Part shown: positions 1,692 to 55,679 of the stretch, one piece after another
How positions within the stretch are numbered: position 1 is the first letter of the stretch
How the letters are laid out: each line of letters opens with the position of its first letter
Assembly (NCBI GenBank): GCA_964540475.1
Contig: CAZIMC010000002.1
Coordinates: 6,709 to 70,708 of the forward strand
Origin: an uncultured Gammaproteobacteria bacterium
Lineage (GTDB): Bacteria; Patescibacteriota; Microgenomatia; UBA8517
DNA length: 64,000 nt
Direction: 5' to 3'
Translations under genes and position numbers: made by a program
The notes under the pieces: model-generated
Databases searched by the model: none
Told to the model about the DNA's origin: nothing
What the model saw: only the letters and a program-made list of their open reading frames with translations

Positions 1692-4600
1692 CTATTCTTC
1701 CGCCGAGTCTAGGTCAATTACCCACCAATTAAATTCCACATCTACATCAAGAACGTTGCTAAAGCCTACAATGAAAAAGCCTTCGCCCTTGGCTTTTACA
1801 TATAGTACTCGGTTTTTTGTCGTAGAGGTGGGAGTTACATAGACTAGGGTTTTATCACTGACGTTTTCGTTTCTTACGATAATTTCATTAAGGCCGGCTG
1901 CGACAGTTGCTTTTCCGGCGGATGCATTACTTTCTATGATTTGTTTTGTGGCCAGGGAGGCAGAGGGGCTAGCAATATCGGCCGCAATAATGAGTTTTTG
2001 GGTCTGAACTTGTCTGAATTCAGCAGAACCGGAAGCATCGATTGCTGCATCGGTCCCAAAGAATGCATTCTGTGCATGGATATTTCCGGTTAAGTATAGA
2101 TTGCCAAAGATTTCTACATCACCATTTGTGTTTATTCTTACCTTACCTGCCATAAGGTCGATTGGAGCAAGAGCCAGGGATTGTAGTGATAAGGGAGCAA
2201 AAAGAGTATTAATACTATTGTCCTGTGAACTTATTACCATATCCGTACCGAAGGCTAGTGAAGTAGAAACTGACATACTGAAAAAAGCCGCCTGATCTGT
2301 AACAAAGAGGTGGTTGAGTGATAAGCTTGATAAATTGTTATATGTAGAATCAAGGTTGTTGTCGGTTGCAACCTCGTCAGTACCCACTTCAGTGGTTTGT
2401 GCCAATCCAGACAGAAGTTTTTGATTAAATTCTATCTCCTTCAGTAGATTTTCGATCTCCAATATTTTCTCCTTGGTAAGACCATCTGGGCTTTCAACAA
2501 AATTTGCAATAACCCTGTCAGCATAAATTGTTCCCGCAATTGTGGCGTCGTTACTTACTGCTAACTGGTTACTGTTTACAGTTCCGGAAAGTGTCGCGTC
2601 GGCTGCGGATATGCTACCCGCAAAATAGGCGTTACCCCGTGTGTCTATGCTAGATACCTCCACTTGGTCAGTATTTTGAACTACAAACCTTGACTCAGGC
2701 TCTAGTTCAGAAGATTCCAATCTGACTACCAAATCCTGACCACTGTTGGGGGTTATGAGTGCTGTTTTAACACTTGGCGTAACAAGACCGGAGGAAATAA
2801 GCAGATTATCAACTGTTGCCGTTGCTATATAAGAAGACTCGGCCACTAATTTTTTTGTCACCAAAGTTCCCGCAGTTATATTGGTGGTTATGATATCCAG
2901 AGCAATCAGGCTTTCTTCAATCGCTATTTTGGTTGCGGTGATTGTGCCAGCCTTAATGTTCTCAGCAATAAGATTCGCCGCAACCACGCTTGCAGCGATT
3001 ATCTTTTCTGTGAATATGTGAGAGGAAGCTATCACTCCCTTTTCCACCTTCTCATCCAGCTCCTGAACTGCTTTTACTAATGGGACTACTAAAGACGCAT
3101 AATCAACCCCCTTTATATCGTGAGCTATATATTGGACTGCTTCCGGGAAAACATTTTCTACATTTTGGGCAATAAGCCCTAGATTGCTTCGTTGGTTTCG
3201 TGTGGGATCTATCCAGCTATAAGTAACTGCTTCCAAAGACTTAATTTTGGTTAGAGCATCCTCCACGGGTGCAATATTTTGCTTAAGCCTGGAATCCGAG
3301 GCACAAGTAACTCCAGCCCCATCTCCAATTACGCAAGTTGTTCCCGAACCATAAAAATATGCATCTCCGTTATTTTTTATTTCGAACTTTGTCTCACCGG
3401 CTACCGAGGCGGTTAGGGGAGAGTTACTCCCAGTTTCATTAAAGACAGCCAGTGCAATGCTTTGTGTGGCAGTTCCCTCTATTGTGATCGGGTTTAGAAA
3501 GCTGGAAGTTGCTCTTATAGTAAAGTTGTTCTCGATTGAATTTCCCAAAGTCACATTTCCGTTTGCCTTGAATGTTTCGCCAACTGTCAGGTTATCTCTT
3601 ATTAATACATTACCTTTGGGAACATAGATGGCATAGGAGTCAGGCAAACCACCACTTCTTGTTACCACCAAAGTGTTAGTTGCAGAACCCGCTTCCTGTT
3701 CAATCTCATTTAGATCAAGAACTAGAAGGTCGGATGTGGAGGGGTTCATATCCTTTGTTATATTTTTACGTATTAAAGCATAGTCGTCAGCCAGTTGATT
3801 TATTTCAAACCGCCCCTGGGTTTGGTTATAGCCGGTAATATTTGCCAGCCCGCCACCGCTATCGAAGCGAACACTTTCTCCAATTCTCAGATCTCCAGTA
3901 AGGTTGACATCAAAAACTCCTAGGATGCTACCAGCCATACTCGTGTTTCCATTAGCATCGATTTGAAACTTCGTTTCGGGATCTGACCCGGTTTGGAATA
4001 CTAAGAGATCGTATGTACCACTGTCGTTGCCAACATATCCATAAAATAAGCTTCCGGAATTAAGATTTGCCGCTGCAGCTCCAAATAGATTACCTTCTTC
4101 ACCCTCTAAAATAACATTCAGTTTACCCTTCCCATCTGGGTTTAACGTAATATCACCGTCCGAAGCATCAGGGGTTGACAGAACGAGTTCTTGCCCTTGA
4201 AGAAGAAGGGCTTGATCGCTTACAATTCCGGGAGCATCACCTTCTAATTTGATTACACCTGCCTCAGAATAAACCCTAGTAAGCGCTTCTTGGTATGCAC
4301 CCAAAACACTTGTAGACCCAGACGGTATTTGCTCAGAGCTTAGGATGTCTTCAGGTAGAGTGGGTGTTGGCGTGAAGAAATTTTCGTTATCAAGGAGTAT
4401 AATTCCGGTTCCAACAATCAGCACCAAAACCCCGCCGCTAAAAAGAGCCTTAAATAAGCTTGACGCCTTTTTCCTGCTTTCCGGAAATACCACTGTGGCT
4501 TGTGGTGTAAGCTCAGGTTTAATTACCGCGTCTCTTGCGGTTATTTGAAGTGTAATGTGATTTTTTCGTGCCCAATCTAGGAACTTTTTGATGGACACGG

Positions 4601-5165
4601 CTTTTCGTTGGGCGGTCGAAGCAGAGAAGCTGTTTTCAAGATATGCCCTGTAAGCTGTAAGCGTCCCCTCTGATACTTTCAGATGACCCAGCCAGGCGAG
4701 GAAGTGGCGCACATCCGAAACGTAATTTTTAATTGTATTTTTAGAAACACGAAGTAGAGTTAAGTGGGTCTTAAAGCTGCCGATAATGCTCTCAAAGTCG
4801 TTTTTGTGCGGCAAGACGCTTAGGTTTTGTAGTCCTTGCGTAAAATCTGTATCCACCAACTGTCTGTTTACCAAAAATCGGGACAAAGCTCTTAGGGTTG
4901 AAAGTCTCCGGTTTATGGTTTTAATGGGGGTGTTAAGTGTAAGTAAGTGCTGCTTGTAATCCTTTGATATGTTTGGGTGTATAAAGGGAATACTTTCAGT
5001 AAAACTGTCTACAAAGACGCCATCCTGTCTTATTTTGTCAACAAACCACTGGGCGAAATGGTTTGCGTCCGACTTGTAATTTTTAAGTGTCATAAAACTT
5101 CTACCCGAGTTATCCAAGTCGAGGATAAAGTTTGTTAGTGTGGGGTCAATTGCTGAATTTTTCAT
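1692..5165 (-). CDS. Giant membrane-anchored surface protein. It has two N-terminal tyrosine-recombinase-type core-binding (SAM-like) domains, one TM helix, a beta-rich fibre-like ectodomain, and an internal Peptidase_S74 (intramolecular chaperone / autoproteolysis) motif.
   Basis: 1157-aa ORF. N-terminal repeats LKNYKSDANHFAQWFVDK and IKNYVSDVRHFLAWLGH resemble the phage-integrase N-terminal SAM-like domain. TM helix GGVLVLIVGTGIILL. SDSRLKQNIAPVEDALTKIKSLEAVTYSWID...GLIAQNVENVFPEAV matches the S74 self-cleavage consensus. Confidence 0.7.
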   Translation of the reverse strand: MKNSAIDPTLTNFILDLDNSGRSFMTLKNYKSDANHFAQWFVDKIRQDGVFVDSFTESIPFIHPNISKDYKQHLLTLNTPIKTINRRLSTLRALSRFLVNRQLVDTDFTQGLQNLSVLPHKNDFESIIGSFKTHLTLLRVSKNTIKNYVSDVRHFLAWLGHLKVSEGTLTAYRAYLENSFSASTAQRKAVSIKKFLDWARKNHITLQITARDAVIKPELTPQATVVFPESRKKASSLFKALFSGGVLVLIVGTGIILLDNENFFTPTPTLPEDILSSEQIPSGSTSVLGAYQEALTRVYSEAGVIKLEGDAPGIVSDQALLLQGQELVLSTPDASDGDITLNPDGKGKLNVILEGEEGNLFGAAAANLNSGSLFYGYVGNDSGTYDLLVFQTGSDPETKFQIDANGNTSMAGSILGVFDVNLTGDLRIGESVRFDSGGGLANITGYNQTQGRFEINQLADDYALIRKNITKDMNPSTSDLLVLDLNEIEQEAGSATNTLVVTRSGGLPDSYAIYVPKGNVLIRDNLTVGETFKANGNVTLGNSIENNFTIRATSSFLNPITIEGTATQSIALAVFNETGSNSPLTASVAGETKFEIKNNGDAYFYGSGTTCVIGDGAGVTCASDSRLKQNIAPVEDALTKIKSLEAVTYSWIDPTRNQRSNLGLIAQNVENVFPEAVQYIAHDIKGVDYASLVVPLVKAVQELDEKVEKGVIASSHIFTEKIIAASVVAANLIAENIKAGTITATKIAIEESLIALDIITTNITAGTLVTKKLVAESSYIATATVDNLLISSGLVTPSVKTALITPNSGQDLVVRLESSELEPESRFVVQNTDQVEVSSIDTRGNAYFAGSISAADATLSGTVNSNQLAVSNDATIAGTIYADRVIANFVESPDGLTKEKILEIENLLKEIEFNQKLLSGLAQTTEVGTDEVATDNNLDSTYNNLSSLSLNHLFVTDQAAFFSMSVSTSLAFGTDMVISSQDNSINTLFAPLSLQSLALAPIDLMAGKVRINTNGDVEIFGNLYLTGNIHAQNAFFGTDAAIDASGSAEFRQVQTQKLIIAADIASPSASLATKQIIESNASAGKATVAAGLNEIIVRNENVSDKTLVYVTPTSTTKNRVLYVKAKGEGFFIVGFSNVLDVDVEFNWWVIDLDSAEE

Positions 5166-5737: not shown

Positions 5738-8659
5738 ATGGTGAGCAAAAATATTACCTACGATCATAGGTCAGTTGAGGCTAGATGGCGGGATTACTGG
5801 GACAATTCAGGACTATACAAAACTGATCTGAATGCTTCGAGGGGACGTTTTTACAATTTATGGATGTTCCCGTATCCTTCCGGGGAGGGTCTACATGCCG
5901 GGCACGCTTTTGCTTCAACAGGTAGCGACATTTACGGCCGTTTTATGAGAATGAAAGGTAGAGAAGTGTTTCAGCCAATCGGCTACGACTCATTTGGCAT
6001 TCATTCTGAAAATTTTGCGATCAAGACAGGTGAAACGCCTCAAATAATGCTTACACGCACAACTAAGCACTACGAAGCACAGTTAAGAAGCCTGGGCCAC
6101 GGCTATGATTGGAGTAGAGTGTTGAGTACTTCTGATATAGATTATTATAAATGGACACAGTGGCTATTTGTCGAAATGTTTAAGGCTGGCCTTGCATACA
6201 AGAAAAAAGCTAGCGTTAATTATTGTCCTTCGTGCAAGACGGTGTTGGCAGACGAGCAGGTAATGACGCCAAAGCAGGCTGGGAAAGAACCCAAAGACGC
6301 AAGGGGTAATAGGGTTTCTGGAACTGATGATACCCGAGTTTGCGAGCGATGTGGTACGGTGGTCCAAAAAAAAGAATTGGATCAGTGGTTTTTTAGGATT
6401 ACCGACTATGCAGACCGGCTACTTTCTGGTTTAGATAAAATTGATTGGAGCGAGCGCGTTAAGATTGCTCAAAGAGAGTGGATAGGGCGGTCCGAGGGGC
6501 TTCGGATCCAATTCCAAATTACAAATTCCAAATTACAAATTCCGGTGTGGACTAAGTTTTGGGAAACAATATATGGGGCTACTTTTCTGGTTGTTGCACC
6601 CGAATACGCACAAAACGAGCTTGTCCACTTGATTCCCCAGGAAAATAAAAAGAAAGTTCTTGAATATATCAAAATGTCTCTTAGTAAGTCAGAACAGCGG
6701 AGGAAAGAAGAGGCAAAAGAAAAAACCGGAGTGTTTACAGGAATTTACGCTGTAAATCCGGCAAATGGTCAAAAGATCCCTGTTTGGGTTACCGACTATG
6801 TGTTATTGGGTGTTGGAACGGGTGCTGTAATGGGAGTTCCTGCGCACGACAAGCGCGACTTTGAATTTGCAAGAAAATTCAACTTGAGACTTCTCCCTGT
6901 TGTCAAACCTAAAGATAGCGCATATAGAAGCTATTTGATGGGTGCAAAAGATATATCAGATAAAGATCTGGAAGATATCAAAGTAATGCTTGTCGAGACC
7001 GATAAAGACGGAGACAAAAAGCTTATCATACCTTCGGATTCACTTGCTGAATATAAAAAGCTTATAAAAGAGAAGTTAGACTTTGGATTTTGGAATGAAG
7101 TGGTGGGAGATACTGTATGGTTTTGCTTTAAAGATAAAACTGGTAATACAACAGAATATATATTATCAGAAAATAATATGTCAGAAATTGCTAAAAAATG
7201 TTCTGAGTTTAACAACGATCCGCTTGAAAAAACAGAGAACCTGTGGCTCTATTTAGCAGAGAATGATTGGTATCAGCCACTCATTGTTCAAGAAAATGGC
7301 GGGGAGTTAATTAACTCAGGGCGGTTTGATGGCATGTCCGCCTGGGGAGAGGGTAAGAAAAAGATGGCTGAGTGGATGATTAAGGAAAGTTTTGCCGAGT
7401 GGAGCACGACTTACCATTTACGAGATTGGTTAGTAAGCAGACAGCGCTACTGGGGGCCTCCGATTCCAATGATCTACTGCCCGAAATGCGCCAAGGAGGG
7501 CAGGAGCTGGCTTAGTCAAAATGAAGCTAACGTTAGGAAAGATCAGACAGACTGGACTCATGCGGGTTGGTACCCTGAAGAAAATTTACCTGTCATCTTG
7601 CCAGAAATGGATAACTATCAGCCCTTAGGTACCGGCAAAAGTCCTTTGGCATCTGTGCCTGATTTTTATGAGGCTAAATGTCCTTACTGTGATGGCGATG
7701 CTACTCGCGAGACAGATGTTTCAGATACATTTGTTGATTCCGCGTGGTATTTCTTAAGATATCCGAGTGTTAATGCAGAAAGTAATAGTAAATTACCCTT
7801 TGATCCAGGAATAACAAAGAAATGGTTACCAGTTTCACTATACTTTGGCGGTGCCGAACATTCAGTGCTGCATTTGATGTATGCCCGTTTTGTAACAATG
7901 ATGCTTTATGATTTGAAGCTAGTTGATTTCGAGGAGCCTTTCCCGAAGTTTTTTGCCCACGGTTTAATGATCAAGGACGGTGCAAAGATGAGTAAATCCA
8001 GAGGAAATGTGGTTAACCCGGATGAGTATATTGAAAAATATGGCGCAGACACCTTGAGACTTTACACCATGTTTATGGGGCCAATGGATGGATATCCGGA
8101 TTTTCGTGACAGTGGGATTGAGGGCATGAGGAGATTTATTAATAAGGTTTATAAACTTTTCGGTGAAGCATTGGTGGAGGAAGAAGCGAATGAAGTAATC
8201 ACAAAACTGCATCAAACCATAAAAAAGACTACCGAAGATATTCAAGGTTTTAGATACAATACCGCAATTGCGTCAATTATGGAATTGGTAAATCTTATCC
8301 AGGTCAAAGGTACTTCAGAAAATACACTAAATGTACTAGCCAGACTCCTGGCGCCATTCACCCCGCACTTAGCCGAGGAATTATGGCAAGAAGTGTTGAA
8401 GCAGAGCGGGTCAGTTCACAATGCAAGCTGGCCAGAACACAATCCTGAATTGATAAATGTGGATCAAGTTGAGCTTGTAGTTCAGGTAGACGGAAAAGTT
8501 CGTGCCCAATTAATGGTAGGCATTAATCATTCCAAGGATCGTGACTTTGTATTCGATTTAGCCAGAAGGGAGCCTAAAGTCGTTAAATGGCTAGAGGGTA
8601 AAGAGGTCAAAGATGAGATATTTATTCCTGAAAAGCTCATTAACTTTGTTACTAAATAA
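5738..8659 (+). CDS. leuS: Leucyl-tRNA synthetase
   Basis: HAGH (HIGH) motif near the N-terminus and KMSKS motif (KMSKSRGN), 973 aa, class I LeuS architecture with editing insertion. Confidence 0.95.
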   Translation: MVSKNITYDHRSVEARWRDYWDNSGLYKTDLNASRGRFYNLWMFPYPSGEGLHAGHAFASTGSDIYGRFMRMKGREVFQPIGYDSFGIHSENFAIKTGETPQIMLTRTTKHYEAQLRSLGHGYDWSRVLSTSDIDYYKWTQWLFVEMFKAGLAYKKKASVNYCPSCKTVLADEQVMTPKQAGKEPKDARGNRVSGTDDTRVCERCGTVVQKKELDQWFFRITDYADRLLSGLDKIDWSERVKIAQREWIGRSEGLRIQFQITNSKLQIPVWTKFWETIYGATFLVVAPEYAQNELVHLIPQENKKKVLEYIKMSLSKSEQRRKEEAKEKTGVFTGIYAVNPANGQKIPVWVTDYVLLGVGTGAVMGVPAHDKRDFEFARKFNLRLLPVVKPKDSAYRSYLMGAKDISDKDLEDIKVMLVETDKDGDKKLIIPSDSLAEYKKLIKEKLDFGFWNEVVGDTVWFCFKDKTGNTTEYILSENNMSEIAKKCSEFNNDPLEKTENLWLYLAENDWYQPLIVQENGGELINSGRFDGMSAWGEGKKKMAEWMIKESFAEWSTTYHLRDWLVSRQRYWGPPIPMIYCPKCAKEGRSWLSQNEANVRKDQTDWTHAGWYPEENLPVILPEMDNYQPLGTGKSPLASVPDFYEAKCPYCDGDATRETDVSDTFVDSAWYFLRYPSVNAESNSKLPFDPGITKKWLPVSLYFGGAEHSVLHLMYARFVTMMLYDLKLVDFEEPFPKFFAHGLMIKDGAKMSKSRGNVVNPDEYIEKYGADTLRLYTMFMGPMDGYPDFRDSGIEGMRRFINKVYKLFGEALVEEEANEVITKLHQTIKKTTEDIQGFRYNTAIASIMELVNLIQVKGTSENTLNVLARLLAPFTPHLAEELWQEVLKQSGSVHNASWPEHNPELINVDQVELVVQVDGKVRAQLMVGINHSKDRDFVFDLARREPKVVKWLEGKEVKDEIFIPEKLINFVTK
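6509..6544 (+). repeat. In-frame tandem repeat (about 14-nt unit caaattccaaatta x2.5) inside leuS, encoding IQFQITNSKLQIP.
   Basis: ccaattccaaattacaaattccaaattacaaattcc read directly from the sequence. Confidence 0.8.
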
Positions 8660-8703
8660 TACCGATTGCGTGGGCTTAAATCTTTCCTATATGATGATAG
8701 TTG

Positions 8704-9357
8704 ATGGGAAGTTCCGAATCGGGCTTGAGTGAACTTTGGGAAAAGCTTCAGGGTATATTCTTCAAATTCAGGTTCTCCATCATTGTAACATTCATGGGGC
8801 TTATCTTGGTGGGTTTGGGGACGTTTTTCGTGAAAACTGAGGGTGAAGTATCGGGCGACCGTGTAGAGGTCCTTAAAAGTGCCACAGAAAGTCAAGAGAG
8901 GCAAATATTCGTTGAGGTTTCCGGTGCTGTTCAAAAACCTGGCGTTTACAGTTTTGACGGGTTGGCTAGAGTAGAGGATGCATTGGTGGCAGCGGGCGGG
9001 TTTTCAGAGAAAGCCGACCGGCAGTGGGTTGATAGAACTTTGAATCGAGCAAGTAAGTTGGTAGATGGTCAAAAGATCTACATACCTCATGTTAGCGAGC
9101 AGTCTTTGGTTTCAAGTGCTAATAATCAGGTGGTATATCAAAATGGATCATCCACTTTTGGAGCTTCCGATGGAGGACTAATCAATATTAACACTGCGAG
9201 CTCAAGTGAATTACAATCATTGAATGGAATTGGCCCTGCCTACGGCCAAAAGATCATTGATCAAAGACCTTACTCAAATATAGATGAGCTGTTAACTAAA
9301 AAGGTTATCCCTAAAAATACTTACGAAAAGATAAAGGATAGAATTTCTGTTTACTGA
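8704..9357 (+). CDS. comEA: ComEA-like competence protein (TM anchor plus SLBB and helix-hairpin-helix DNA-binding domain)
   Basis: C-terminal ININTASSSELQSLNGIGPAYGQKIIDQRP is a HhH motif. There is an N-terminal hydrophobic segment. Confidence 0.8.
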   Translation: MGSSESGLSELWEKLQGIFFKFRFSIIVTFMGLILVGLGTFFVKTEGEVSGDRVEVLKSATESQERQIFVEVSGAVQKPGVYSFDGLARVEDALVAAGGFSEKADRQWVDRTLNRASKLVDGQKIYIPHVSEQSLVSSANNQVVYQNGSSTFGASDGGLININTASSSELQSLNGIGPAYGQKIIDQRPYSNIDELLTKKVIPKNTYEKIKDRISVY

Positions 9358-9416
9358 TTGCAGTTTGCTGTTTTAATTGAGTAAGTGATAGCCAGCCGAC
9401 AGTTAATAAGTATATT

Positions 9417-10478
9417 ATGTACCGCATTTTCTTCTATGCATTTTTACTTACTATCATTGTAGTCAGATTTATAATGGTTCGGCCGGTTTATAAGGACGGT
9501 GATTTTGTGCGAGTTACCTCAAAGGTTAGGACACCTCCGACATACTATGAGGATTTTCAAGGCGTGTCTGTCGCCGGGTTAAGGACCTATCTGCCGCTGG
9601 ATCAGGAAATTTCATATGGCGACTTTATAGTGATAGAAGGTTTAGTAGAAGATAACAAAATCAAAAAGCCTCAAGTAATTAGCATTAGAAAGGCCGAAGG
9701 ATTTTTAGTTGGCTTAAGAAGCTTAATTCTTAACTTTTTTAACAAATATTTGCCGCAGGATCATGCGGCATTAATTGCAGGCATAGTATTGGGGGATAAA
9801 GGAGGCCTAAGTGAGGGTTTTTCCGACAAACTAAAAGCAAGTGGCACCATACATGTAGTTGTAGCATCAGGTCAAAACGTCACATTTGTGGCAGCATTTC
9901 TTGTTGCAATAATAACAATTGCACTAAAAAGAAGCATTGCTATACCTTTTGTTATAGGCGGGATTTTTATCTACAGTGTTTTGGCGGGTTTTGAACCACC
10001 AATTGTTAGAGCTGCCATTATGGGAACCTTTGCCTTTGTTGCTCAGGAATTCGGGCGTATATATACAACTTGGCACGCGCTTGTTTTGACCGCATTGGGT
10101 ATGTTGGTAATAAACCCGCTCTGGTCAGTCGATCTTGGTTTTATCCTTTCGTTTGTGGCTACAGTGTCAATTTTACTGTTCCATTCACGAATTAATAAAA
10201 AACTACTTGGACTGCCCAACTTCTTTCGAGAAGGTCTATCATCATCTTTTGCTGCTCAAATTGGGGTAACACCAATTCTTTTTGTCACTTTCGGTAACTT
10301 CAACATTCTTTCGCCAATAATCAATGCGCTTATTCTTTGGACTATTCCACTGATAATGAGCCTCGCAGGTTTGGCAGCCTTAACTTCTTTGTTGTCGGGT
10401 AGGTTGGCTAGTCTAATTCTATATTTAACATATCCTCTGACAAGCTGGTTTATATTTATTGTTGAACTGTTTAGCTAG
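9417..10478 (+). CDS. comEC: ComEC/Rec2 N-terminal competence (membrane channel) domain. It is in the same frame as the next ORF, separated only by an in-frame TAG.
   Basis: DHAALIAGIVLGDKGGLSEGFSDKLKASGTIHVVVASGQNVTFVAAFL competence-domain signature. Polytopic. Confidence 0.8.
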   Translation: MYRIFFYAFLLTIIVVRFIMVRPVYKDGDFVRVTSKVRTPPTYYEDFQGVSVAGLRTYLPLDQEISYGDFIVIEGLVEDNKIKKPQVISIRKAEGFLVGLRSLILNFFNKYLPQDHAALIAGIVLGDKGGLSEGFSDKLKASGTIHVVVASGQNVTFVAAFLVAIITIALKRSIAIPFVIGGIFIYSVLAGFEPPIVRAAIMGTFAFVAQEFGRIYTTWHALVLTALGMLVINPLWSVDLGFILSFVATVSILLFHSRINKKLLGLPNFFREGLSSSFAAQIGVTPILFVTFGNFNILSPIINALILWTIPLIMSLAGLAALTSLLSGRLASLILYLTYPLTSWFIFIVELFS

Positions 10479-10481
10479 AGA

Positions 10482-11369
10482 ATGGAGAGATATTGGAAAA
10501 TTGTCTTTGGGTTATTATTGCTCACGGCCAGTATGGTCTGGATTTCAGTATTAGTAGTTCCAGACAAAACATTTAAACTTATTGCCTGCGATGTAGGACA
10601 GGGTGATGCCATTCTTGCTGTTTACGGAGCAAATCAAATATTAACAGATGGGGGGCCGGGGAGTAGCGTAATTTCTTGTCTAGAAAAATACATGCCGTTT
10701 TATGATAGAAAAATCGAGCTTGTGGTTTTAACACACGCAGACCGTGACCATTACGGGGGATTGGTACATGTGTTTAAAAGATATGAGGTAAATACTTTAG
10801 TGGTAAGTAGTGTTGATTCTGGCAGTAGTGGATATGAAGTGCTAAAAAATGCCGTAGGGGGTAGTGCTACGCGAGTTATATACCCGGAAGAAGGGATTAC
10901 TGTCAGGTTGGGAAAGATGCATTTAGATATAGTCTATCCAAATGATTTGGCGTTGCGAGAAGAATATTCGCAAGTATTAGGTGCATCAGTACTTGAAGGA
11001 AAAACAAACGAAAATTCGATAGTTACTTTACTCTCATTCGGGGATTTTGATGCCTTATTAACAGGGGATATTGGTCCCAATGAAAACGATATGGTTGCCG
11101 ATAGAATCTTAAATAAGTATGCAAGCAAAACGCTCGAATATATCAAAGTGCCTCACCATGGCTCTAAAAATGGTTTGACTATCAAACTACTAGATGCAGT
11201 GAAGCCTAAACTAGCAGTAATTTCATCTGGTAAGGGAAACTCCTACGGTCATCCACACGCGGAGATTGTGGATATGTTAACCAAACATAGAGTTCAGATA
11301 TTAAGAACAGATGAACTTGGCGAAATTGTGTTGGAATCTGATGGAAGGCGAGTTTGGCTATCAAATTAA
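10482..11369 (+). CDS. comEC: ComEC C-terminal metallo-beta-lactamase domain
   Basis: CDVGQGDAILAV and HADRDHYGG MBL motifs. Same reading frame as 9417..10478. Confidence 0.8.
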   Translation: MERYWKIVFGLLLLTASMVWISVLVVPDKTFKLIACDVGQGDAILAVYGANQILTDGGPGSSVISCLEKYMPFYDRKIELVVLTHADRDHYGGLVHVFKRYEVNTLVVSSVDSGSSGYEVLKNAVGGSATRVIYPEEGITVRLGKMHLDIVYPNDLALREEYSQVLGASVLEGKTNENSIVTLLSFGDFDALLTGDIGPNENDMVADRILNKYASKTLEYIKVPHHGSKNGLTIKLLDAVKPKLAVISSGKGNSYGHPHAEIVDMLTKHRVQILRTDELGEIVLESDGRRVWLSN

Positions 11370-16040: not shown

Positions 16041-16138
16041 CTATCTTCTAGGGAGGAAAGCAGAGCTTGGCCATTATCAAGGCTAATGGTAAGGAAACCT
16101 TAGCCATTCTCAGTAGAGAATGGTAAAATACATCTTAA

Positions 16139-21367: not shown

Positions 21368-22642
21368 GTGGGTACTAAATTAAGCCTGCCAAAAGGCACA
21401 CAAACACCCAATCACATAGCCATTATTCCAGACGGGAACAGGCGTTGGGCCAGGGCTCGCGGCCTTCATACGCTAAGGGGACACAAAAGAGGCTTTGAAG
21501 CTGCTGTCAAAATTGGTAGGGCAGCACGCGATTTGGGGATTCACACCATCACTCTCTGGGGGTTCTCGACCGAAAATTGGGACAGGGATAAATCAGAAGT
21601 TGACTACTTAATGCGCCTGTATGTAAAGCTAGTGGACGACTATTTAAAAGAAGCAATGGAGAACAAGGTTAAAATAGTACATTTAGGAAGAAAGGATAGG
21701 CTACCAAAATTCCTTTTAAAAAAGCTTTCATACGCAGAAGAAAAGACAGCCCATTTTGACAAATTTATAATGAATATCGCCATAGATTATGGGGGGCAAG
21801 ATGATATTATTCGAGCAGTAAAGGCCATGATTGCAGAAGGGGTGAGTGGGGATGAAGTGGAAAAAGAACTGTTTGACAGATTTGTAGATACAAAAACCCA
21901 GCCATATCCATATGTAGATTTAATGATCAGGACTTCGGGCGAGCAACGCACAAGTGGGTTTTTATTATGGCAATCTGCATATACTGAGTATTATTGGGAG
22001 AGAGAACATTTCCCGGATTTTACTCCTGAAAAGTTTAAAGAGGCGATAATGGATTACTCACGGAGAAGAAGGAGGTTTGGTGGTAACGATGCCGTTGAGC
22101 ACTTTACATTTAAACCGGAAATTGCTGCTAAGTTTGAGCTTGCGTGGTGGCGTCTTGCTAAAATCCCGGAAGGAACAAAGTTCGTTGACTATGCAGTTAA
22201 CCATTTAAAGGAGCAGTACGGCCTTAGCAAGAAATTTGCTAAAGAGGCGGCTAAATTAATGCTCGAGGCAGCACTTCATGAAGAAGATGACAAATGGGAG
22301 AAAGCTAGAATCAAGCTTAAGAAGTTCTACGGCATAATTAAAGAGGAAGTTCAGCTTGCGTTTGAGCCGGAACTGGTCGCTCACCTAGAAGTTAAGTTAA
22401 GGCGGGAGATTGAAGGGAAAACTGAAGTTGAGGGGGTCGGGGAAGCTGAGGAGACTGCAAAAAGCTTATACGCAGAGGTTTACAGGATTTCGCTTTTCCA
22501 GGCTGCCAAACTGGCGCACCTTCGAGTTTTGGCTTCAGTTGAGCGTAATTTAGCAAGACGGGGTTTTGGAGATCATCATTGGGACCGCGCTCAGGACTAC
22601 CTCGAAAAATTCTACTATGCGCTGAAGGAACGCGTAGCGTGA
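21368..22642 (+). CDS. uppS: Undecaprenyl-diphosphate synthase (cis-prenyltransferase) fused to a helical K/E-rich C-terminal extension of about 200 aa. The start is uncertain. The ORF is open from 21218 but overlaps the NUDIX gene; a GTG at 21368 is proposed.
   Basis: HIAIIPDGNRRWA and MIRTSGEQRTSGFLLWQSAYTEYYW UppS motifs. The extension carries RRRRRFGG and has no recognisable domain. Confidence 0.75.
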   Translation: MGTKLSLPKGTQTPNHIAIIPDGNRRWARARGLHTLRGHKRGFEAAVKIGRAARDLGIHTITLWGFSTENWDRDKSEVDYLMRLYVKLVDDYLKEAMENKVKIVHLGRKDRLPKFLLKKLSYAEEKTAHFDKFIMNIAIDYGGQDDIIRAVKAMIAEGVSGDEVEKELFDRFVDTKTQPYPYVDLMIRTSGEQRTSGFLLWQSAYTEYYWEREHFPDFTPEKFKEAIMDYSRRRRRFGGNDAVEHFTFKPEIAAKFELAWWRLAKIPEGTKFVDYAVNHLKEQYGLSKKFAKEAAKLMLEAALHEEDDKWEKARIKLKKFYGIIKEEVQLAFEPELVAHLEVKLRREIEGKTEVEGVGEAEETAKSLYAEVYRISLFQAAKLAHLRVLASVERNLARRGFGDHHWDRAQDYLEKFYYALKERVA

Positions 22643-22752
22643 CGACTGCGCAGAGCCAAGCTACGCTTACCACGCACTCAAAGAGAGAGTTGCTTAAAGA
22701 TAATGCGTGGCCAAGCTCTGCTTACTATGCGCTGAAGGAACGAGTAGCCTAG
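22613..22752 (+). repeat. Direct repeat of the uppS 3' terminus (30 bp, synonymous variants only) flanking an insert of about 80 bp. The insert carries two copies of the GGCCAAGCT(NN)GCTTAC motif and a tRNA-Thr-5'-end-like fragment.
   Basis: tactatgcgctgaaggaacgcgtagcgtga occurs at 22613-22642 and tactatgcgctgaaggaacgagtagcctag at 22723-22752. Motif copies at 22654-22670 and 22707-22725. Confidence 0.8.
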
Positions 22753-23020
22753 GTAAAAACTTCAATATCCAAACTTCAAGAAACAAACAAATTCCAATTA
22801 CTTAAAATCCAATCCACTGGCATTAGTAGTTATGAATTACTTGTAACTTGGTGCTTGGTTATTGGAATTTCCCTTGAAAGGGGCTTGACACTCTTGTACT
22901 GCTTTGATATGTTGTGATTAACATAGTTAGCAAATACGCTCAAGGTAATATAAAAGAGCATACAAATGCTTAAAAGTATATCAGCGTGAAAACTAACTCA
23001 GTTTAGATAACAGCTAGACA

Positions 23021-23239
23021 ATGGACGAAAATAAAAAGAAAAAAGTACGGCTTGAGGACCTTCCAGACCTTTTGACAGTTCGTGAGGTCTCAGACCTGCT
23101 CCGAGTATCTCCGCTCACAATAAAAAGATGGGGAAAACGCGGCAAACTTCCCGCAATTCGAATAAATTCTAGGGGCGACAGAAGATACAAGAAAGAGGCA
23201 GTACTTTGGCTTCTCGGAATGCAAGAAAAATCTTCTTAA
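23021..23239 (+). CDS. Excisionase-family / AlpA-like helix-turn-helix DNA-binding protein (72 aa). No integrase is nearby.
   Basis: LTVREVSDLLRVSPLTIKRWGKRGKLPAIRI fits the HTH_17/excisionase DNA-binding domain pattern. Confidence 0.65.
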   Translation: MDENKKKKVRLEDLPDLLTVREVSDLLRVSPLTIKRWGKRGKLPAIRINSRGDRRYKKEAVLWLLGMQEKSS

Positions 23240-23282
23240 ACGATTTTTGTTTTCTCGCTGCTATTTTGATAATATATTATTG

Positions 23283-23563
23283 TTGACAGCTAAATAAATG
23301 CGTTAATATCGGAGTCGCGATCCGAGAGCAGCGGTAATAAATAACCGACGGATGCAAACCGTAAAAAGTTGCTAGAGTGTGTCGGAAACGGAGCACTCGA
23401 AATAATTGAGGGTTTAGCCCGCGTTTCGAGTCCCGCTTAGGCGGGTTTTTTAATGGGATAAACTAATAAAGGGTGGTACCGCACGTAAGAAGTGCCCCTT
23501 CAACGGCTTAAATAATTAGGCAGTTGGAGGGGCTTTTTTGTTGCCTTAAAGGGAGTATGTTAG
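23283..23563 (+). promoter_or_regulatory. Structured non-coding leader element L1. It has a sigma70-like promoter, a hairpin containing GCAAACC, two tandem intrinsic terminators and a GGTGGTACCGC box. It is a paralog of 25620..25911.
   Basis: TTGACA 23283-23288 and TAATAT 23304-23309. Terminator cccgcttaggcggg+U6 at 23432-23451. Terminator gccccttcaac...gttggaggggc+U6 at 23494-23538. ATG at 23564. Confidence 0.55.
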
Positions 23564-24385
23564 ATGGAAAGAGAAACAACAAGAACAGAATATGCAAACC
23601 AGGACTTATGGTCATTGATGGAATCTTCATGGCCGGGAGCCGTTGTAAAGAATAAGGAAAATTTTAAATTTGGACCAGTATCTAATGTATGCATTGTACT
23701 CTGTCCTTTATACAAAAAAGGCGATATTAAGAGAACCGACATTCTTGATGTCGGTGAGAGCTTGGAAGAATCGCGGGTTTTTGGTAAGACGAAAGCATAT
23801 GAAGCTGCTTTACGAGCGTTGAGTTTTTCTTTACAAAAAACGAGCTCGTCGTTAAGGGTGAATTTTGTTATTGCCAACAAAGGAGTTTTGCTTGAAAGAA
23901 ACCCTGTTGCTGAAGATTACGAAAAGCTTAAGTACCACAACGAACTTTATACCAGATTGATTGACGAATGGGCTCAAATAATGGGATTTGAGTATATCTT
24001 GACTGATTATTTTGAGAGAGGGATTGATTTCCCAGAGTTTGTGAGGGTGACCCAAAAGATCCCGAAAAATACTGAACACAGTGAAGATATCAATAAAAAT
24101 GAACCCTTTTTGCTGATAGAATATCTTAATAGATATCTGAAGCCAGTTGAGCTGATTCAAAACAATGGCAATAATAGGCATGTTGCAAAAAGTCTCATTA
24201 AGGCGTTCGGATTGAATGCAGCCTTTTGGCTGACTGCCGGATATTTGGTATTTGACCATAAAATCCCCGAAATCATTGGAGAAAATGGAATTTACATTGT
24301 GTCGGAGAGATTTGACCCTTTATATTCCATTGTTAAGTTTACACCAAACCTTGAGAAACTAACCAGAATCCAGTTAAAAGCATGA
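23564..24385 (+). CDS. Hypothetical protein (273 aa), no recognisable domain
   Basis: Long ORF directly downstream of the L1 leader, translationally coupled (ATGA) to the next gene. Confidence 0.6.
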   Translation: MERETTRTEYANQDLWSLMESSWPGAVVKNKENFKFGPVSNVCIVLCPLYKKGDIKRTDILDVGESLEESRVFGKTKAYEAALRALSFSLQKTSSSLRVNFVIANKGVLLERNPVAEDYEKLKYHNELYTRLIDEWAQIMGFEYILTDYFERGIDFPEFVRVTQKIPKNTEHSEDINKNEPFLLIEYLNRYLKPVELIQNNGNNRHVAKSLIKAFGLNAAFWLTAGYLVFDHKIPEIIGENGIYIVSERFDPLYSIVKFTPNLEKLTRIQLKA

Positions 24386-25619: not shown

Positions 25620-25911
25620 AGTTAATAGGATTGCTGAGAAGGAGCACAGTAGGTTTTTCTGGTGGCCATAGAGAGAACTGGTGGTTGGTGCAAACCAGTC
25701 GTACAGAAAAAAGCGAATTACACTCTGGAGCTGGTTTAAAGTAAATTAAACCCGGGTCGCCCGTAATAGCAAAAGGCGTGTCGCGCGAGTGATAAGCCCG
25801 AAAAGGTTAAGATGGTAACATTTTAACGAATCAAGGTGGTACCGCCTTAGAATGAAGGCCCTTGTTTGAACCTAGCATGTGGGTTCAAACAAGGGCCTTT
25901 TTTGATTTTAT
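25620..25911 (+). promoter_or_regulatory. Structured non-coding leader element L2, paralog of L1. It shares the GCAAACC-containing hairpin, the AAGGTGGTACCGCC-TTAGAA box, and a terminator hairpin of different sequence but the same position (covariation).
   Basis: ggtggtaccgcc at 25836-25847. Hairpin aaggcccttgtttgaacc...ggttcaaacaagggcctt plus U5 at 25855-25903. ATG at 25912. Confidence 0.55.
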
Positions 25912-26841
25912 ATGCCAGAAAGAATAAAAGACAAACAGGAACTGAAAGATATGTTTGTGTCTCAACCGACAATTGGGACAATTCTGCGTGTGTTGGATAA
26001 TGAAGTATACAGAAATTCGCATTTAGAAGAGCGTTTGGGATGGGTGGGAATATCTGGTAGTAAGGCTAGACATGCTGGGCTTGAAGGAAAGAACGGGGTG
26101 GTGAGTGACGAAGACTTGGTTATTATCCTAAAGGGATCTTCACAAAATGACCCATTAAACATGCAAGCTTATGAACAAGTCCTTGATTGTATTAATCAGG
26201 CAACGAAAATTATGGTTGAGGAAAAGGGTATTATTCCTGTATATGCATCAACAATCAGACTGGAAGATGCGCAAATGGCGCTTGCTAGACTGATTCATGC
26301 AAGTGGTCAGATAAGGATGATACACTCTCTAATTTATCCGTCTCCTGAGGCAGTGGTTGCGTTTGAACCGCCGCTTCTGGCACGCAATCTAGTAGGCCAA
26401 GCCCTGACTCTTTGGGGTGATGAAAGAATAGCAGAGGATGTAAACCGATCAGCCAGAAATGGTGCACGCGTAGAAAACATAAACTTGACGATAGGTGGAC
26501 TTGATGGAATCAGTGATAATTTTAGAATGCTCAGAACAAATAGACATGTCCTGCCGGCTCTATTCTTGGGCCCGCAGGCCGTGCATGTTCTTGACTACAG
26601 TGTAAAATGGGCAATGGCTCAAGTTGTAGAAAAAGCTGGTGGAGCAGAATGCGCAACTTGGGGTGAAATAATAGATAATTTTCCCTCTGAGGAGGGCGGT
26701 CAATTGTTGATAGAGGTAGTAAAAAAGATTAGACTGCTTCGGGCCCAAGAGGAACATGTCGATTTGGATGAATTAGAAAATCTATATAGAGAGGTAATTT
26801 CCTTGTGGCCACTATTTACCTCTATTAGAAGCGGAAAGTGA
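25912..26841 (+). CDS. Pol-beta-superfamily nucleotidyltransferase domain protein (309 aa). It resembles the ANT/AadA-like or CD-NTase-like GS...DxD architecture. Substrate unknown.
   Basis: GISGSKARHAGLEGKNGVVSDEDLVIIL fits the hG[GS]-x9-13-[DE]h[DE]h NTase active-site motif. Confidence 0.55.
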   Translation: MPERIKDKQELKDMFVSQPTIGTILRVLDNEVYRNSHLEERLGWVGISGSKARHAGLEGKNGVVSDEDLVIILKGSSQNDPLNMQAYEQVLDCINQATKIMVEEKGIIPVYASTIRLEDAQMALARLIHASGQIRMIHSLIYPSPEAVVAFEPPLLARNLVGQALTLWGDERIAEDVNRSARNGARVENINLTIGGLDGISDNFRMLRTNRHVLPALFLGPQAVHVLDYSVKWAMAQVVEKAGGAECATWGEIIDNFPSEEGGQLLIEVVKKIRLLRAQEEHVDLDELENLYREVISLWPLFTSIRSGK

Positions 26842-40961: not shown

Positions 40962-41158
40962 TTTTACATTAAAAAAGGCACCATCGAGGTGCCAAAATCT
41001 AGTGCCTAGTTTCTACCGGTGAAACCGGCCAAGCTTAGCTTATTGCCTAGTGCCTAGTTTTTTACCCTCGGTACGACTTATGAATGCGTACTGTCTTCGG
41101 ACAACTGTTAATATATCAAAACTCTAATATAAACGCAAATACGCCAAATACCCTAAAC
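40962..41158 (-). promoter_or_regulatory. rplJ 5' leader region (expected L10(L12)4 autoregulatory leader). It contains a hairpin and one copy of the GGCCAAGCTTAGCTTA motif.
   Basis: ggcaccatcgaggtgcc hairpin. Motif at 41026-41041. Confidence 0.4.
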
Positions 41159-41959
41159 TTATTTGACCTCTACCTTAACAGACGGACCCATTGAGGCCTT
41201 GGTGTAAACGCTAATAATCTGCTTATTGCCCCCCAAAGCCTTGAAAATGCTTTCTGCATTTTCCACCAACTTTCCGGTCTCCTGGCTTACTTTACCAATT
41301 GCAGTGTGAATTAGGGGAGCTGACTTTTCGGTTTTCAGAGTTACCGAATTAGCAGAATAATTTTTAGCTTTAGAGGGGTCAGAAATAAGAGTTTCATTTT
41401 TTGGATTTGGCATCATACCCCTGGGGCCTAGGATTCTTGCAAATGGGACTAATTTTGGCATCATGTCAGGGGTTGCCAAAAGTACGTCAAAGTCAACTTT
41501 TCCTTCGCTTAATTTTTTAATTGTTTCATCGGTCGCAACCTCAACTCTTTTTTCTTTTCCTGTTGAGTTGGGGAGAGTGACGTTTGCGCTCGTACCAACC
41601 CTCTTAACCATTATATGAAGCTCAACTGAGCCGTCAAAACTTGAATATGATGTTTCCTGAGCCAGTTTTATTGCCTCAGGGAGATTATATGCCTTGCCTT
41701 GCGCGACTTTGGCCTTTGCTTCATCGTATTTCTTTGAGCGGGTTCTTGGCTTCGTAGCTTCTTTGGTTTTCTTGGTATCTTTATCACCCAGTTTCTCAGT
41801 ATCTTCTGGTAGTTGTTCAGCTTCTACAATCTTAACCCTCCTTTGTCCGCCTTTCAATCCTGCCACGCGAACCCTTCGGCTTTGCTCAGGGCCTTTAGCC
41901 TTATCCTTATTTTTATCTTGCGTTTCTTCGCCAATGAATGCGGTTTTAGTTTTTCCCAT
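41159..41959 (-). CDS. rplA: Ribosomal protein uL1 with a K-rich N-terminal extension. Start set at MGKTKTAF, 2 nt after the rplK stop.
   Basis: L1 core (ATPDMMPKLVPFARILGPRGMMPNPK). The ORF-track start at 42004 would overlap rplK by 44 nt. Confidence 0.85.
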   Translation of the reverse strand: MGKTKTAFIGEETQDKNKDKAKGPEQSRRVRVAGLKGGQRRVKIVEAEQLPEDTEKLGDKDTKKTKEATKPRTRSKKYDEAKAKVAQGKAYNLPEAIKLAQETSYSSFDGSVELHIMVKRVGTSANVTLPNSTGKEKRVEVATDETIKKLSEGKVDFDVLLATPDMMPKLVPFARILGPRGMMPNPKNETLISDPSKAKNYSANSVTLKTEKSAPLIHTAIGKVSQETGKLVENAESIFKALGGNKQIISVYTKASMGPSVKVEVK

Positions 41960-41960
41960 T

Positions 41961-42386
41961 TTATTCTGTCTTGACCCCCATGCTTCTTGCCACACCTTCA
42001 ACAACCCGTTTGGCAGATTCTAAATTGTCTGTATTAAGATCGTCAATTTTGTCCTTAGCGATGGCTTCAACCTGATCTCTGGTAAGTGTTCCAACAATTT
42101 CTTTGGGAGTTGAACCTGAACCCTTCTCAAGACCCAGTGTTTTCTTAATCATGTCCGCAATTGGTGCTTTTTTGATCTCAAAATCAAATGTCCTGTCTTC
42201 ATAGATTGTGATAACAGCAGGTACGACTTGCCCGCGCATATCGGCGGTTTTGTCGTTATACGCCTTAACAAAATCCATAATTGCAACACCGTGCTGCCCC
42301 AATGCCGTTCCTACCGGAGGAGCGGGAGTTGCTTCTCCTGCTTTAAGATTAATTTTTACGACTGTTTTTATTTTTTTAGCGGCCAT
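41961..42386 (-). CDS. rplK: Ribosomal protein uL11
   Basis: MAAKKIKTVVKINLKAGEATPAPPVGTALGQHGVAIMDF. Confidence 0.95.
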   Translation of the reverse strand: MAAKKIKTVVKINLKAGEATPAPPVGTALGQHGVAIMDFVKAYNDKTADMRGQVVPAVITIYEDRTFDFEIKKAPIADMIKKTLGLEKGSGSTPKEIVGTLTRDQVEAIAKDKIDDLNTDNLESAKRVVEGVARSMGVKTE

Positions 42387-55529: not shown

Positions 55530-55605
55530 TGGGAGCCGTCTTAGGGACTCGAACCCTAGACCTGCTGTTTACAAAACAGCTGCTCTACCACTGAGCTAAG
55601 ACGGC
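55530..55605 (-). tRNA. tRNA-Thr (TGT), CCA encoded
   Basis: Acceptor GCCGTCT/AGACGGC, anticodon loop TTTGTAA, T-loop TTCGAGT. Confidence 0.75.
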
Positions 55606-55679
55606 TAAGTTCAAAATGCTCGGTGGCCAAGCTTTGCTTACCACTGAGCTAAGACAGCAACGTTTTGGAAATTATACCA
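55606..55679 (-). repeat. Leader of the tRNA-Thr(TGT) transcript. It contains the GTGGCCAAGCTTTGCTTAC motif, a duplicated 17-nt copy of the tRNA-Thr 5' end (one mismatch), and the tRNA promoter -10.
   Basis: Motif at 55623-55641. ccactgagctaagacAgc at 55641-55658 against the tRNA's ccactgagctaagacGgc at 55588-55605. -10 ggaaattatacca at 55667-55679, reverse complement TGGTATAAT. Confidence 0.75.

Follow-up and report, generated by a model that had tools for sequence, protein, structure and literature searches.

Tandem hairpin-bearing units at the 3′ end of uppS as a candidate miniature, target-healing mobile element of Woesebacteria

We propose, at a probability of roughly 55%, that the 3′ end of uppS (the undecaprenyl-diphosphate synthase gene) in the 64,000-nt stretch of DNA analysed here, hereafter the window, holds two tandem copies of a miniature, non-autonomous, target-healing mobile element of Woesebacteria that would move as single-stranded DNA (ssDNA) with the help of a putative enzyme acting in trans. 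Its insertion point lies immediately 3′ of TT(C/T)TAC within strongly conserved sequences, and units within genes bring their own copy of everything from there to the gene end, which here amounts to eight codons plus the stop. Judging from the comparisons below, uppS now ends in element DNA and stays functional, its native end being displaced and left to decay; repeated invasion builds arrays, and recombination between copies can remove units. On comparative sequence grounds, we regard TAC-specific insertion, two conserved structured ends, target-restoring cargo, transfer between lineages and loss by recombination as established. We also lean, by a little over even odds, towards the wider view that these units form an undescribed class of mobile DNA in Woesebacteria, a group of the Candidate Phyla Radiation (CPR): hairpin pairs of 30–55 nt that enter the best-conserved parts of essential genes, tRNAs and leaders, persist there thanks to a substitute for the displaced part of the target carried in a hairpin loop, spread between lineages diverged to synonymous saturation, stack into arrays and, once lost through recombination, leave chimeric gene ends. 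Searches of the literature found no description of such an element.

Repeated gene ends in uppS

uppS occupies 21368–22642 on the + strand (PF01255, E = 2.3e-70), with an uncertain start (GTG at 21368 or the start of the open reading frame, ORF, at 21218), and its product carries a Woesebacteria-type C-terminal extension of ~185 amino acids (aa). Its top homologues bear the names Woesebacteria or Microgenomates, and the terminus (F/Y)YxALKERVA is present in all 120 of the best homologues listed. The earlier note on this DNA had reported a 30-bp direct repeat at the gene end that differs only at synonymous or stop positions, and this repeat (TACTATGCGCTGAAGGAACG) is real: it occurs at two sites only in the window, 22613 and 22723, where 100 shuffles predict none, with three differences between the copies (cgc/cga, gcg/gcc, tga/tag), all synonymous or stop-for-stop. 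The same note had counted the gene end twice, 110 bp apart; these two outer copies stand, but a repeat finder places YxALKERVA plus stop three times in exact 55-nt steps, at 22613, 22668 and 22723. The middle copy (22668–22697; tac cac gca ctc aaa gag aga gtt gct taa) encodes YHALKERVA*, with 65% nucleotide identity and the same peptide except at the naturally variable position x, and it is this copy that had been taken for a fragment of tRNA-Thr. Its low identity also explains why Tandem Repeats Finder does not report the 55-nt array. Two copies of the motif GCCAAGCTNNGCTTAC, likewise noticed earlier, were found at 22655 and 22710, directly before each downstream gene-end copy.

Rather than the single insert of ~80 bp first described, the region consists of two tandem 55-nt units inserted after a Tyr codon, with the native end displaced downstream. 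One unit comprises a replacement gene end of 27 nt, a linker of 12 nt and the motif GCCAAGC-NNN-GCTTAC. The junction codon TAC (22613–22615, + strand) follows the host left flank AAATTC, and its C is the first base of a first hairpin (hairpin 1). Unit 1 (22616–22670, +) contains the gene end X_A (22616–22642, stop TGA), which supplies the final 27 nt of uppS, the linker (22643–22654) and the motif GCCAAGCTACGCTTAC, which forms a second hairpin (hairpin 2, 22655–22670). Hairpin 1 of this unit pairs 22615–22623 with 22647–22655, and the stem of hairpin 2 pairs 22658–22661 with 22665–22668. Unit 2 (22671–22725, +) repeats the arrangement with an earlier replacement end, X_B (22671–22697, YHALKERVA*, stop TAA), linker (22698–22709) and motif (hairpin 2, 22710–22725), its hairpin 1 pairing CCACGCA (22670–22676) with TGCGTGG (22704–22710). 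The displaced end X_C (22726–22752, +; YALKERVA*, stop TAG) is now untranslated and is followed by the native downstream flank GTAAAAACTTCA, which resembles both the sequence after the stop of an empty relative (L001; locus numbering is explained below) and the sequence after the last copy in another (L003).

The three copies, which lie in three frames with three different stops owing to the exact 55-nt period, are unequally related. X_A and X_C differ at 3 positions and X_B differs from either at 10–11; X_B and X_A differ at 11 of 27 nt but at only 1 of 9 residues. With A and C nearly alike and B apart, no order of local duplications yields the pattern seen in the window.

Two hairpins at the unit borders

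Read along the TAC-bearing strand, the units share the layout TA-C(hairpin 1)G, C(C/T), hairpin 2 (AAGS-NNN-SCTT) and A(C). Hairpin 1, which is variable in sequence, begins with the C of TAC; its 5′ arm consists of the first codons of the replacement end, its loop of the remaining gene end, and its 3′ arm of the linker, in many cases together with the stop codon. Hairpin 2 has a conserved sequence ((C/T)AAGS-NNN-SCTTA, closing in TTAC), with AAGC/GCTT, AAGG/CCTT, AAAC/GTTT and AAGA/TCTT as its stem variants. How the two arms of hairpin 1 covary is illustrated by the 5′ and 3′ sequences in related uppS loci, namely TGCCCTCA and TGAGGGCA in L208, CGCACTCA and TGAGTGCG in L212, TGCGCTCA and TGAGCGCA in L225, AGTGCATT and AATGCACT in L257, and CCGTGC and GCACGG in L242; in L228 and L243 (CGCACTTAA and TTAAGTGCG) the stop TAA tracks a Leu codon CTT.

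Pair counts made on two gap-free alignments supported both hairpins. In the family of 50-nt units, 86.8% of cells were paired and covariation reached 0.283 (shuffled, 0.087); in the 55-nt family, 83.9% of cells were paired with a covariation of 0.349 (shuffled, 0.122), and neither observed value was reached in any of 500 shuffles. Sliding the partners by 1–3 columns lowered pairing to 21–47%, and one pair of hairpin 1 was seen as AU, GC, CG and UA. Terminal inverted repeats are absent from the unit borders, and flanking sequence is shared at TAC alone, with no duplication beyond it.

Within arrays, truncated units consist of the two hairpins only (CGAGT-CAA-ACTCG plus motif in L131; AGTGT-GCTTAA-ACACT plus motif in L257). 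Since these units, as well as two intergenic ones in the window (16056–16125, see below), keep nothing but the hairpins, the hairpin pair of ~30 nt would be the core of the element and the gene end its cargo.

Occupied and empty sites in related genomes

The uppS comparison covered 77 distinct Woesebacteria-type loci (numbered within L001–L285) from genome and metagenome collections; the genome collection, scanned with generic UppS motifs, gave at least 12 Woesebacteria loci, and the metagenomes were scanned by the C-terminal domain alone. Units occupy 23 of the 77 loci and 54 are empty, where occupancy is a lower bound (L252 was scored empty at first, yet has a unit with a decayed displaced end), unit detection partly relied on an intact peptide, and several metagenome loci come from the same or related populations. 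When detection was by motif only, 11 of 13 first units were also followed by an intact displaced end. Arrays reach five units (L257), copy-to-copy spacings are 42, 50, 51, 53 and 55 nt (42–79 nt overall) without a consistent frame relation, and the same architecture is present in independent NCBI, JGI, ENA and Logan assemblies.

An empty site in relatives, which the earlier note had named as the way to check for an insertion, is indeed found. The closest relative, L001/L002 (77% aa identity), has neither repeat nor motif, and its stop is followed directly by the flank that comes after the last copy in the window. More closely matched is the pair of L242 (occupied) and L245 (empty), identical at 57 of 60 upstream positions and across the whole downstream flank (70/70); the end of the empty site matches the displaced copy of L242 at 25 of 27 positions and the new copy at 18 of 27. 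A second pair, L246 (occupied, 6423–6503) and L266 (empty, 1420–1450), is 98.3% identical, and the empty end is a chimera made of the first 15 nt of the new copy and the last 12 nt of the old one. This looks like loss of the unit by recombination between the copies at a shared 9-nt stretch, leaving a chimeric gene end; the direction of the event is suggested by the linker arm, which pairs with the 5′ part of the chimera. Unit traffic could in this way rewrite gene ends permanently.

The junction codon is TAC in 23 of 23 occupied loci, whereas the 54 empty loci divide into 35 with TAC and 19 with TAT; by our hypergeometric estimate, the chance of finding no TAT among 23 occupied loci is ~4e-4. 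Stop codons differ as well, TGA ending uppS in 17 of the 23 occupied loci, where units supply the end, compared with 10 of the 54 empty ones, which fits the pairing of the stop with TCA in hairpin 1.

In two strain pairs we also observed that the first displaced codon departs from the empty allele, being CGG in L242 (6456–6520) versus AGA in empty L245 (2271), and CGA in L285 versus AGA in L273, with CGT as the unit codon; all encode Arg. Conversion at the right junction, selection or polymorphism could each be the cause.

Transfer between lineages and imported gene ends

Occupied genomes are strongly diverged outside the units. Across the 300 nt of uppS upstream of TAC they are 61–73% identical, with 33–51% identity at third codon positions. 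By comparison, unit 1 of the window is 89–93% identical to its counterparts in L134, L242 and L285, where upstream uppS reaches just 61–65%, and linker plus hairpin 2 are identical at 23 of 23 positions among L228, L232 and L243, whose upstream third positions agree at 36–43%. Third positions of the new ends are 89–100% identical in the pairs window–L242, L242–L285, L131–L231 and L228–L243 (for window and L242, 89% in the new end versus 36% upstream). The step in between-genome similarity is located at TAC, and displaced ends are less similar between genomes than new ends; L131 and L231, for instance, share one and the same new end and linker in front of different displaced ends.

Within loci, the new end departs from the displaced one at as many as 12 of 27 nt, including switches between codon families (Ser AGY versus TCN; Arg AGA versus CGT). 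Over 20 loci, 159 nucleotide differences correspond to only 5 amino acid differences, compared with 95.6 ± 4.3 amino acid changes under a random-substitution null. Such almost wholly synonymous divergence indicates that both copies stem from functional genes that diverged under selection, and that the displaced copy is not a decayed local duplicate. Together with the empty sites, these comparative data bear out the proposal, made in the earlier note, of a target-restoring insertion by a tiny mobile element that carries a replacement gene end.

As a separate observation, unit-borne and displaced ends agree in the amino acid at the variable position x of FYxALKERVA at 18 of 20 loci, even where the codons belong to different families, which suggests either lineage-specific selection on x or transfer chiefly among relatives.

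Units at other sites

The motif recurs elsewhere, and with it flanking duplications of local target sequence, as would be expected of the element pictured in the earlier note. A motif scan of the window gave 5 matches (0.45 expected), and the motif or its compensated variant GCTAAGGTTTCCTTAC was located outside uppS at 16071(−), 16104(−), 41028(+) and 55626(+). In total, six units lie within 64 kb, three of them within genes (two in uppS, one in tRNA-Thr).

The tRNA-Thr(tgt) gene (55530–55606, − strand) contains a unit in its D-loop (55589–55658, +) that follows CTCTAC, with TAC at 55586–55588. Its parts are a replacement tRNA 5′ part (55589–55605), a linker (55606–55625), the motif (55626–55641) and the displaced 5′ fragment (55642–55658), which has one mismatch to the replacement at a spacing of 53 nt; in hairpin 1, CCACTGAGC pairs with GCTCGGTGG. 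In the spacer between rplA and rplJ, a unit (41003–41066, +) consists of a copy of local sequence (TGCCTAGTTTCTA, 41003–41015), hairpin 1 (CCGGTGAAACCGG, 41016–41028), the motif (GCCAAGCTTAGCTTAT, 41028–41043) and the displaced copy (TGCCTAGTGCCTAGTTTTTTACC, 41044–41066). Two tandem units in the spacer of ndk and tRNA-Arg(cct) (16056–16125, −) have no duplicated cargo: on the minus strand, the first follows TAC as CCATTCTC-TACT-GAGAATGG plus GCTAAGGTTTCCTTAC, and the second reads CCATTA-GCCTTGA-TAATGG plus GCCAAGCTCTGCTTTC. The AAGG/CCTT stem of the cargo-free unit is a compensated form of AAGC/GCTT.

Beyond the window, an equivalent insertion is present in the D-loop of tRNA-Pro(ggg) in L206, and L134 has a further unit at the 3′ end of an unrelated gene (GTC TTC TAC followed by ACG AAG TGA). 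Each genic or leader target (tRNA-Thr, tRNA-Pro, the L134 gene and the rplJ leader region) has matching cargo, and the left host flank is nearly always TT(C/T)TAC (uppS, tRNA-Thr with CTCTAC, tRNA-Pro and the L134 gene). Units lie in sense orientation in uppS and antisense in tRNA genes.

Proposed mechanism

In the mechanism that we envisage, a unit would be cut out and pasted (or copied) in single-stranded form by a strand transferase that recognises hairpins and is supplied in trans; an HUH/Y1 enzyme of the IS200/IS605–RAYT kind is the best candidate for this role. The enzyme would cleave on the 3′ side of two sequences, TAC in the left flank and the TTAC closing hairpin 2, and cargo could arise from a left cut at an upstream TAC. 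Only cargo-matching units would survive in essential sequence, so that selection, not the enzyme, would explain why cargo and target match. Uptake of ssDNA through ComEA/ComEC, encoded in the window (8701–11369), may provide a route between lineages. Judging from the stiffness of DNA, a unit of 30–55 nt should be too small to circularise as duplex; as a duplex circle would thus be unavailable and hairpins stand exactly at both borders, we infer that single-strand transfer is the most economical mechanism. GC skew is positive across the whole window, and the TAC-bearing strand is the + strand in four of six units, which is compatible with this mechanism and not significant.

Several observations weigh against this proposal. 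No transposase, integrase or HUH gene was found among the 48 ORFs of the window by Pfam scan, these ORFs being housekeeping genes, and a crude motif scan of ~2 Mb of CPR loci detected no Y1 HUH transposase. Nor were mis-targeted units seen (uppS cargo outside uppS, for example); either they are weeded out by selection, or the cargo somehow takes part in targeting. The orientation bias just mentioned falls short of significance. Hairpin 1 is unlike hairpin 2, whereas IS200/IS605 ends bear similar hairpins bound by one TnpA, and the cleavage site would lie 0–2 nt from the hairpin feet, unlike in IS608, where the cleavage-to-hairpin distances are 19 and 10 nt. The same uppS codon is hit in genomes with saturated third positions, and the linker arm is unpaired with the displaced end (for example in L212). 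The first displaced codon differs from the empty allele in both strain pairs described above. Finally, the similarity of units between genomes might partly reflect constraint, not recent transfer, and occupancy counts are not fully independent where metagenome loci come from the same populations.

Further searches were directed at a structural family, a parent element or a vector. No Rfam family matched the units, whether gathering scores or permissive E-values were applied. A parent element with an integrase, which the earlier note had anticipated, did not turn up, and the cargo-free 30-nt units suggest that the hairpin pair is itself the element. In the viral sequences of IMG/VR, the 14-base motif gave chance matches only (one apparent 54-nt duplication is a coding tandem repeat in a phage protein), and two longer unit patterns gave no match and four chance matches in high-GC viral genes, respectively; with units missing from IMG/VR, there is no sign of a viral vector.

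Alternative explanations

One alternative, which we think unlikely, keeps the same tiny unit but assigns its movement to site-specific recombination, as in integron attC and CTX/Xer systems or by a different tyrosine or serine recombinase, on a folded or duplex attachment site; the hairpin pair would serve as this site and TAC as the crossover point. Arrays do grow at a fixed proximal site, as cassettes would, and a recombination-site-like palindrome is centred on hairpin 2; yet AAC/GTT R-boxes are absent, and conservation lies in the inner hairpin with variation in the outer arms, opposite to what attC shows. The resemblance of the first displaced codon to the unit codon in L242/L245 and L285/L273 would fit a staggered overlap, but the sequence adjacent to TAC differs freely (AGC versus TCT in L212), so no identical overlap of 6–8 bp is present. 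The window encodes a 1157-aa protein with an integrase SAM-like domain, though no recombinase is linked to any unit, and a 50-bp duplex circle is implausible as a substrate.

We give slightly less credence to the view that the two-hairpin module is not selfish but a host-beneficial structure of 3′ ends or leaders (stabiliser, processing signal or terminator substitute) spread by recombination after transformation. The compensatory changes do attest to selection having acted on the two hairpins over a long period, the window encodes ComEA and ComEC, and units are found where transcripts end or in leaders (uppS 3′ end, pre-tRNA leader, rplJ leader). However, it is the target sequence that fixes how units are oriented, whichever way transcription runs; the hairpins are not followed by a terminator-like T tract; the module is missing from 54 of 77 loci; and strains of 98% identity differ in occupancy. 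Units moreover stack up to five per array, truncated ones included. As for spread by homologous recombination, the flank identity of only ~61–70% is too low, and the left boundary is always exactly TAC, without the variable upstream conversion tract of such exchange.

Less probable still is a version of the attL/attR-style footprint suggested in the earlier note, in which a larger integrative element (phage, plasmid or island) would have carried a uppS 3′ end in its attP and left the repeats behind as scars when it was later deleted. Replacement of gene ends is known from e14/phage 21 in icd and from islands in tRNA genes, and the pattern of synonymous differences fits. No gene-sized insert separates the copies, however, in ~29 occupied uppS loci, in assemblies from four sources, where the interval is just 23–28 nt (52 nt in L134, whose interval holds a decayed second motif). 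Linker and motif form one contiguous structure with covariation across the junction, cargo-free 30-nt units exist, and no linked integrase adjoins the copies in occupied loci. Nor does the neighbouring gene, previously described as an orphan excisionase, point to such an element: a promoter-like site (TTGACA-17-TATGTT, 22885–22913) and a 72-aa HTH_17/MerR gene (23021–23239; together 22885–23239, +) are ordinary synteny, being found next to uppS in relatives with and without units (L001, L003, L004, L129, L132 and L135).

Least credible, and already contradicted, are local tandem duplication or slippage with drift, an assembly artefact joining strain variants, and a frameshift or bypass device, for although the 55-nt period puts three copies in three frames with three stops, and TAC...TAC borders 50–55 nt apart, together with a hairpin, are reminiscent of T4 gene 60 and its 50-nt gap, drift cannot produce a middle copy that is off at 10–11 of 27 nt with its peptide kept while the outer copies differ at 3, the architecture recurs across the independent NCBI, JGI, ENA and Logan assemblies, spacings of 42–55 nt keep no consistent frame, the first copy already completes the ORF, and the same element is found in tRNA genes and intergenic DNA.

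Four narrower ideas were considered and rejected. Long target duplication of a CRISPR-like, Cas1-type or transposase kind is at odds with copies that were not identical at origin and with a new copy whose similarity between genomes exceeds that of the old. Nor is the linker arm a target guide, since its pairing partner is the gene end of its own unit rather than the displaced one. For a small ribozyme such as the hammerhead, a conserved core is missing, and a mini-ORF opened by the conserved ATG in front of hairpin 2 would be out of frame in the window; pairing with C-A of TAC-A accounts for that ATG.

Implications

Mobile elements in essential genes normally depend on splicing, as introns and inteins do, or on an integrase together with an extensive att region. 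If our reading of the uppS units as a target-healing mobile element is true, they would be the smallest cargo-bearing mobile elements known and would offer a new route of allele replacement at gene termini. As a limit case, ~50 nt (two hairpins and a healing copy) would then suffice, indicating the minimal size of a self-propagating, target-compatible element. The 3′ ends of conserved genes, with their stop codons, would be exchangeable horizontally, and duplicated gene ends or tRNA fragments in CPR genomes that are otherwise called att sites or assembly errors would be accounted for. The units also point to a candidate hairpin-specific strand transferase in CPR, which, if it proved to be a compact ssDNA integrase with a simple site, would be of interest for genome engineering.

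Other genes of the window

A 1157-aa ORF (1692–5165, −) combines a phage-integrase SAM-like N-terminal domain (residues 130–201) with a Peptidase_S74 intramolecular-chaperone domain (623–677), and no catalytic integrase domain was detected in it at E <= 1e-4; possible explanations are a fusion or a Xer-like recombinase that has gained a large insertion. The competence genes (8701–11369, +) comprise ComEA (SLBB and HHH_3 domains) and ComEC, the latter as adjacent Competence-domain and Lactamase_B ORFs. A T-box leader (25627–25866, +; Rfam, 105 bits) precedes an ORF without Pfam match (25912–26841), and a second T-box-like stretch (AAGGGTGGTACCGC near 23470, within 23280–23560), with a terminator-like hairpin, precedes another such ORF (23564–24385); neither downstream gene resembles an aminoacyl-tRNA synthetase. 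Between 33405 and 39860 lie five RimK/ATP-grasp genes, a 7TM-transglutaminase-like protein, DUF3541 and a class-I glutamine amidotransferase, a cluster unusual for a small CPR genome that suggests peptide or poly-amino-acid ligation chemistry. A gene of the nicotianamine synthase family (48273–49052, +; PF03059, E = 2.6e-52) is followed by a GNAT acetyltransferase. The rplA ORF (41159–42004, −), of 281 aa, matches Ribosomal_L1 at residues 161–274 only and overlaps rplK, which is probably due to an over-extended start, or else to an N-terminal extension.

Comparison with known systems

The closest parallels are with the IS200/IS605 family, including IS608 and its 'peel and paste' transposition of single strands, and with the miniature derivatives of this family, the non-autonomous palindrome-associated transposable elements (PATEs). 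IS608 inserts 3′ of TTAC via a single-stranded circle and prefers the lagging-strand template (PMC5027513). Units here likewise have a fixed short site 5′ of the insertion, standing after TT(C/T)TAC and themselves ending in TTAC; they bear a hairpin near each end, lack terminal inverted repeats and target duplication, have a strand-specific architecture, and are of a size that fits only a single-stranded intermediate. They differ in that no TnpA was found in the window, the two hairpins are dissimilar, the cleavage points would abut the hairpin feet, and the element measures 30–55 nt as against 100–300 nt for PATEs. To our knowledge, a healing copy of the displaced target is not known for any IS200/IS605 element.

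Repetitive extragenic palindromes (REPs) and REPINs, with their RAYT transposases, offer a second comparison. REPs carry a tetranucleotide tag (GTAG) and hairpins of 20–40 nt, and HUH/Y1 enzymes probably act on these tagged hairpins much as they do in IS608 (PMC3733652). Hairpin 2, read on the other strand, is GTAA-GC-NNN-GCTTGGC, with GTAA in the position of the tag, and the units are also non-autonomous and sometimes within genes; REPs, however, are mostly extragenic, high-copy and usually arranged as inverted doublets, and no RAYT gene was seen in the window. The REP survey makes no mention of target duplication or replacement (PMC3733652).

With target-restoring integrative elements the units share an element-borne gene end that replaces the native one, which is left downstream as a diverged direct repeat with synonymous differences. 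Examples of such integrative elements that restore the 3′ end of their target are e14/phage 21 in icd and islands in tRNA or tmRNA genes. Those elements are kilobases in size, encode an integrase and replace the 3′ end only, whereas the units described here have 50–55 nt without a gene and, in tRNA genes, replace the 5′ part. Integron cassettes with their attC sites resemble the units in their folded hairpin site, in being small and promoterless, and in forming arrays with proximal entry; the unit alignments show no R/L boxes and no AAC/GTT triplet, the window no IntI, no attI is present, and conserved and variable parts are the other way round. Translational bypass elements (T4 gene 60, mitochondrial byps) are similar as inserts of ~50 nt in a coding region with TAC...TAC borders and a hairpin, but here the reading frame runs on from the first TAC through the usual C-terminus to the stop, so that no bypass is needed, and frames are inconsistent. 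The element departs from every one of the families compared in at least one defining feature, and there is a fair chance that it constitutes a class of its own.

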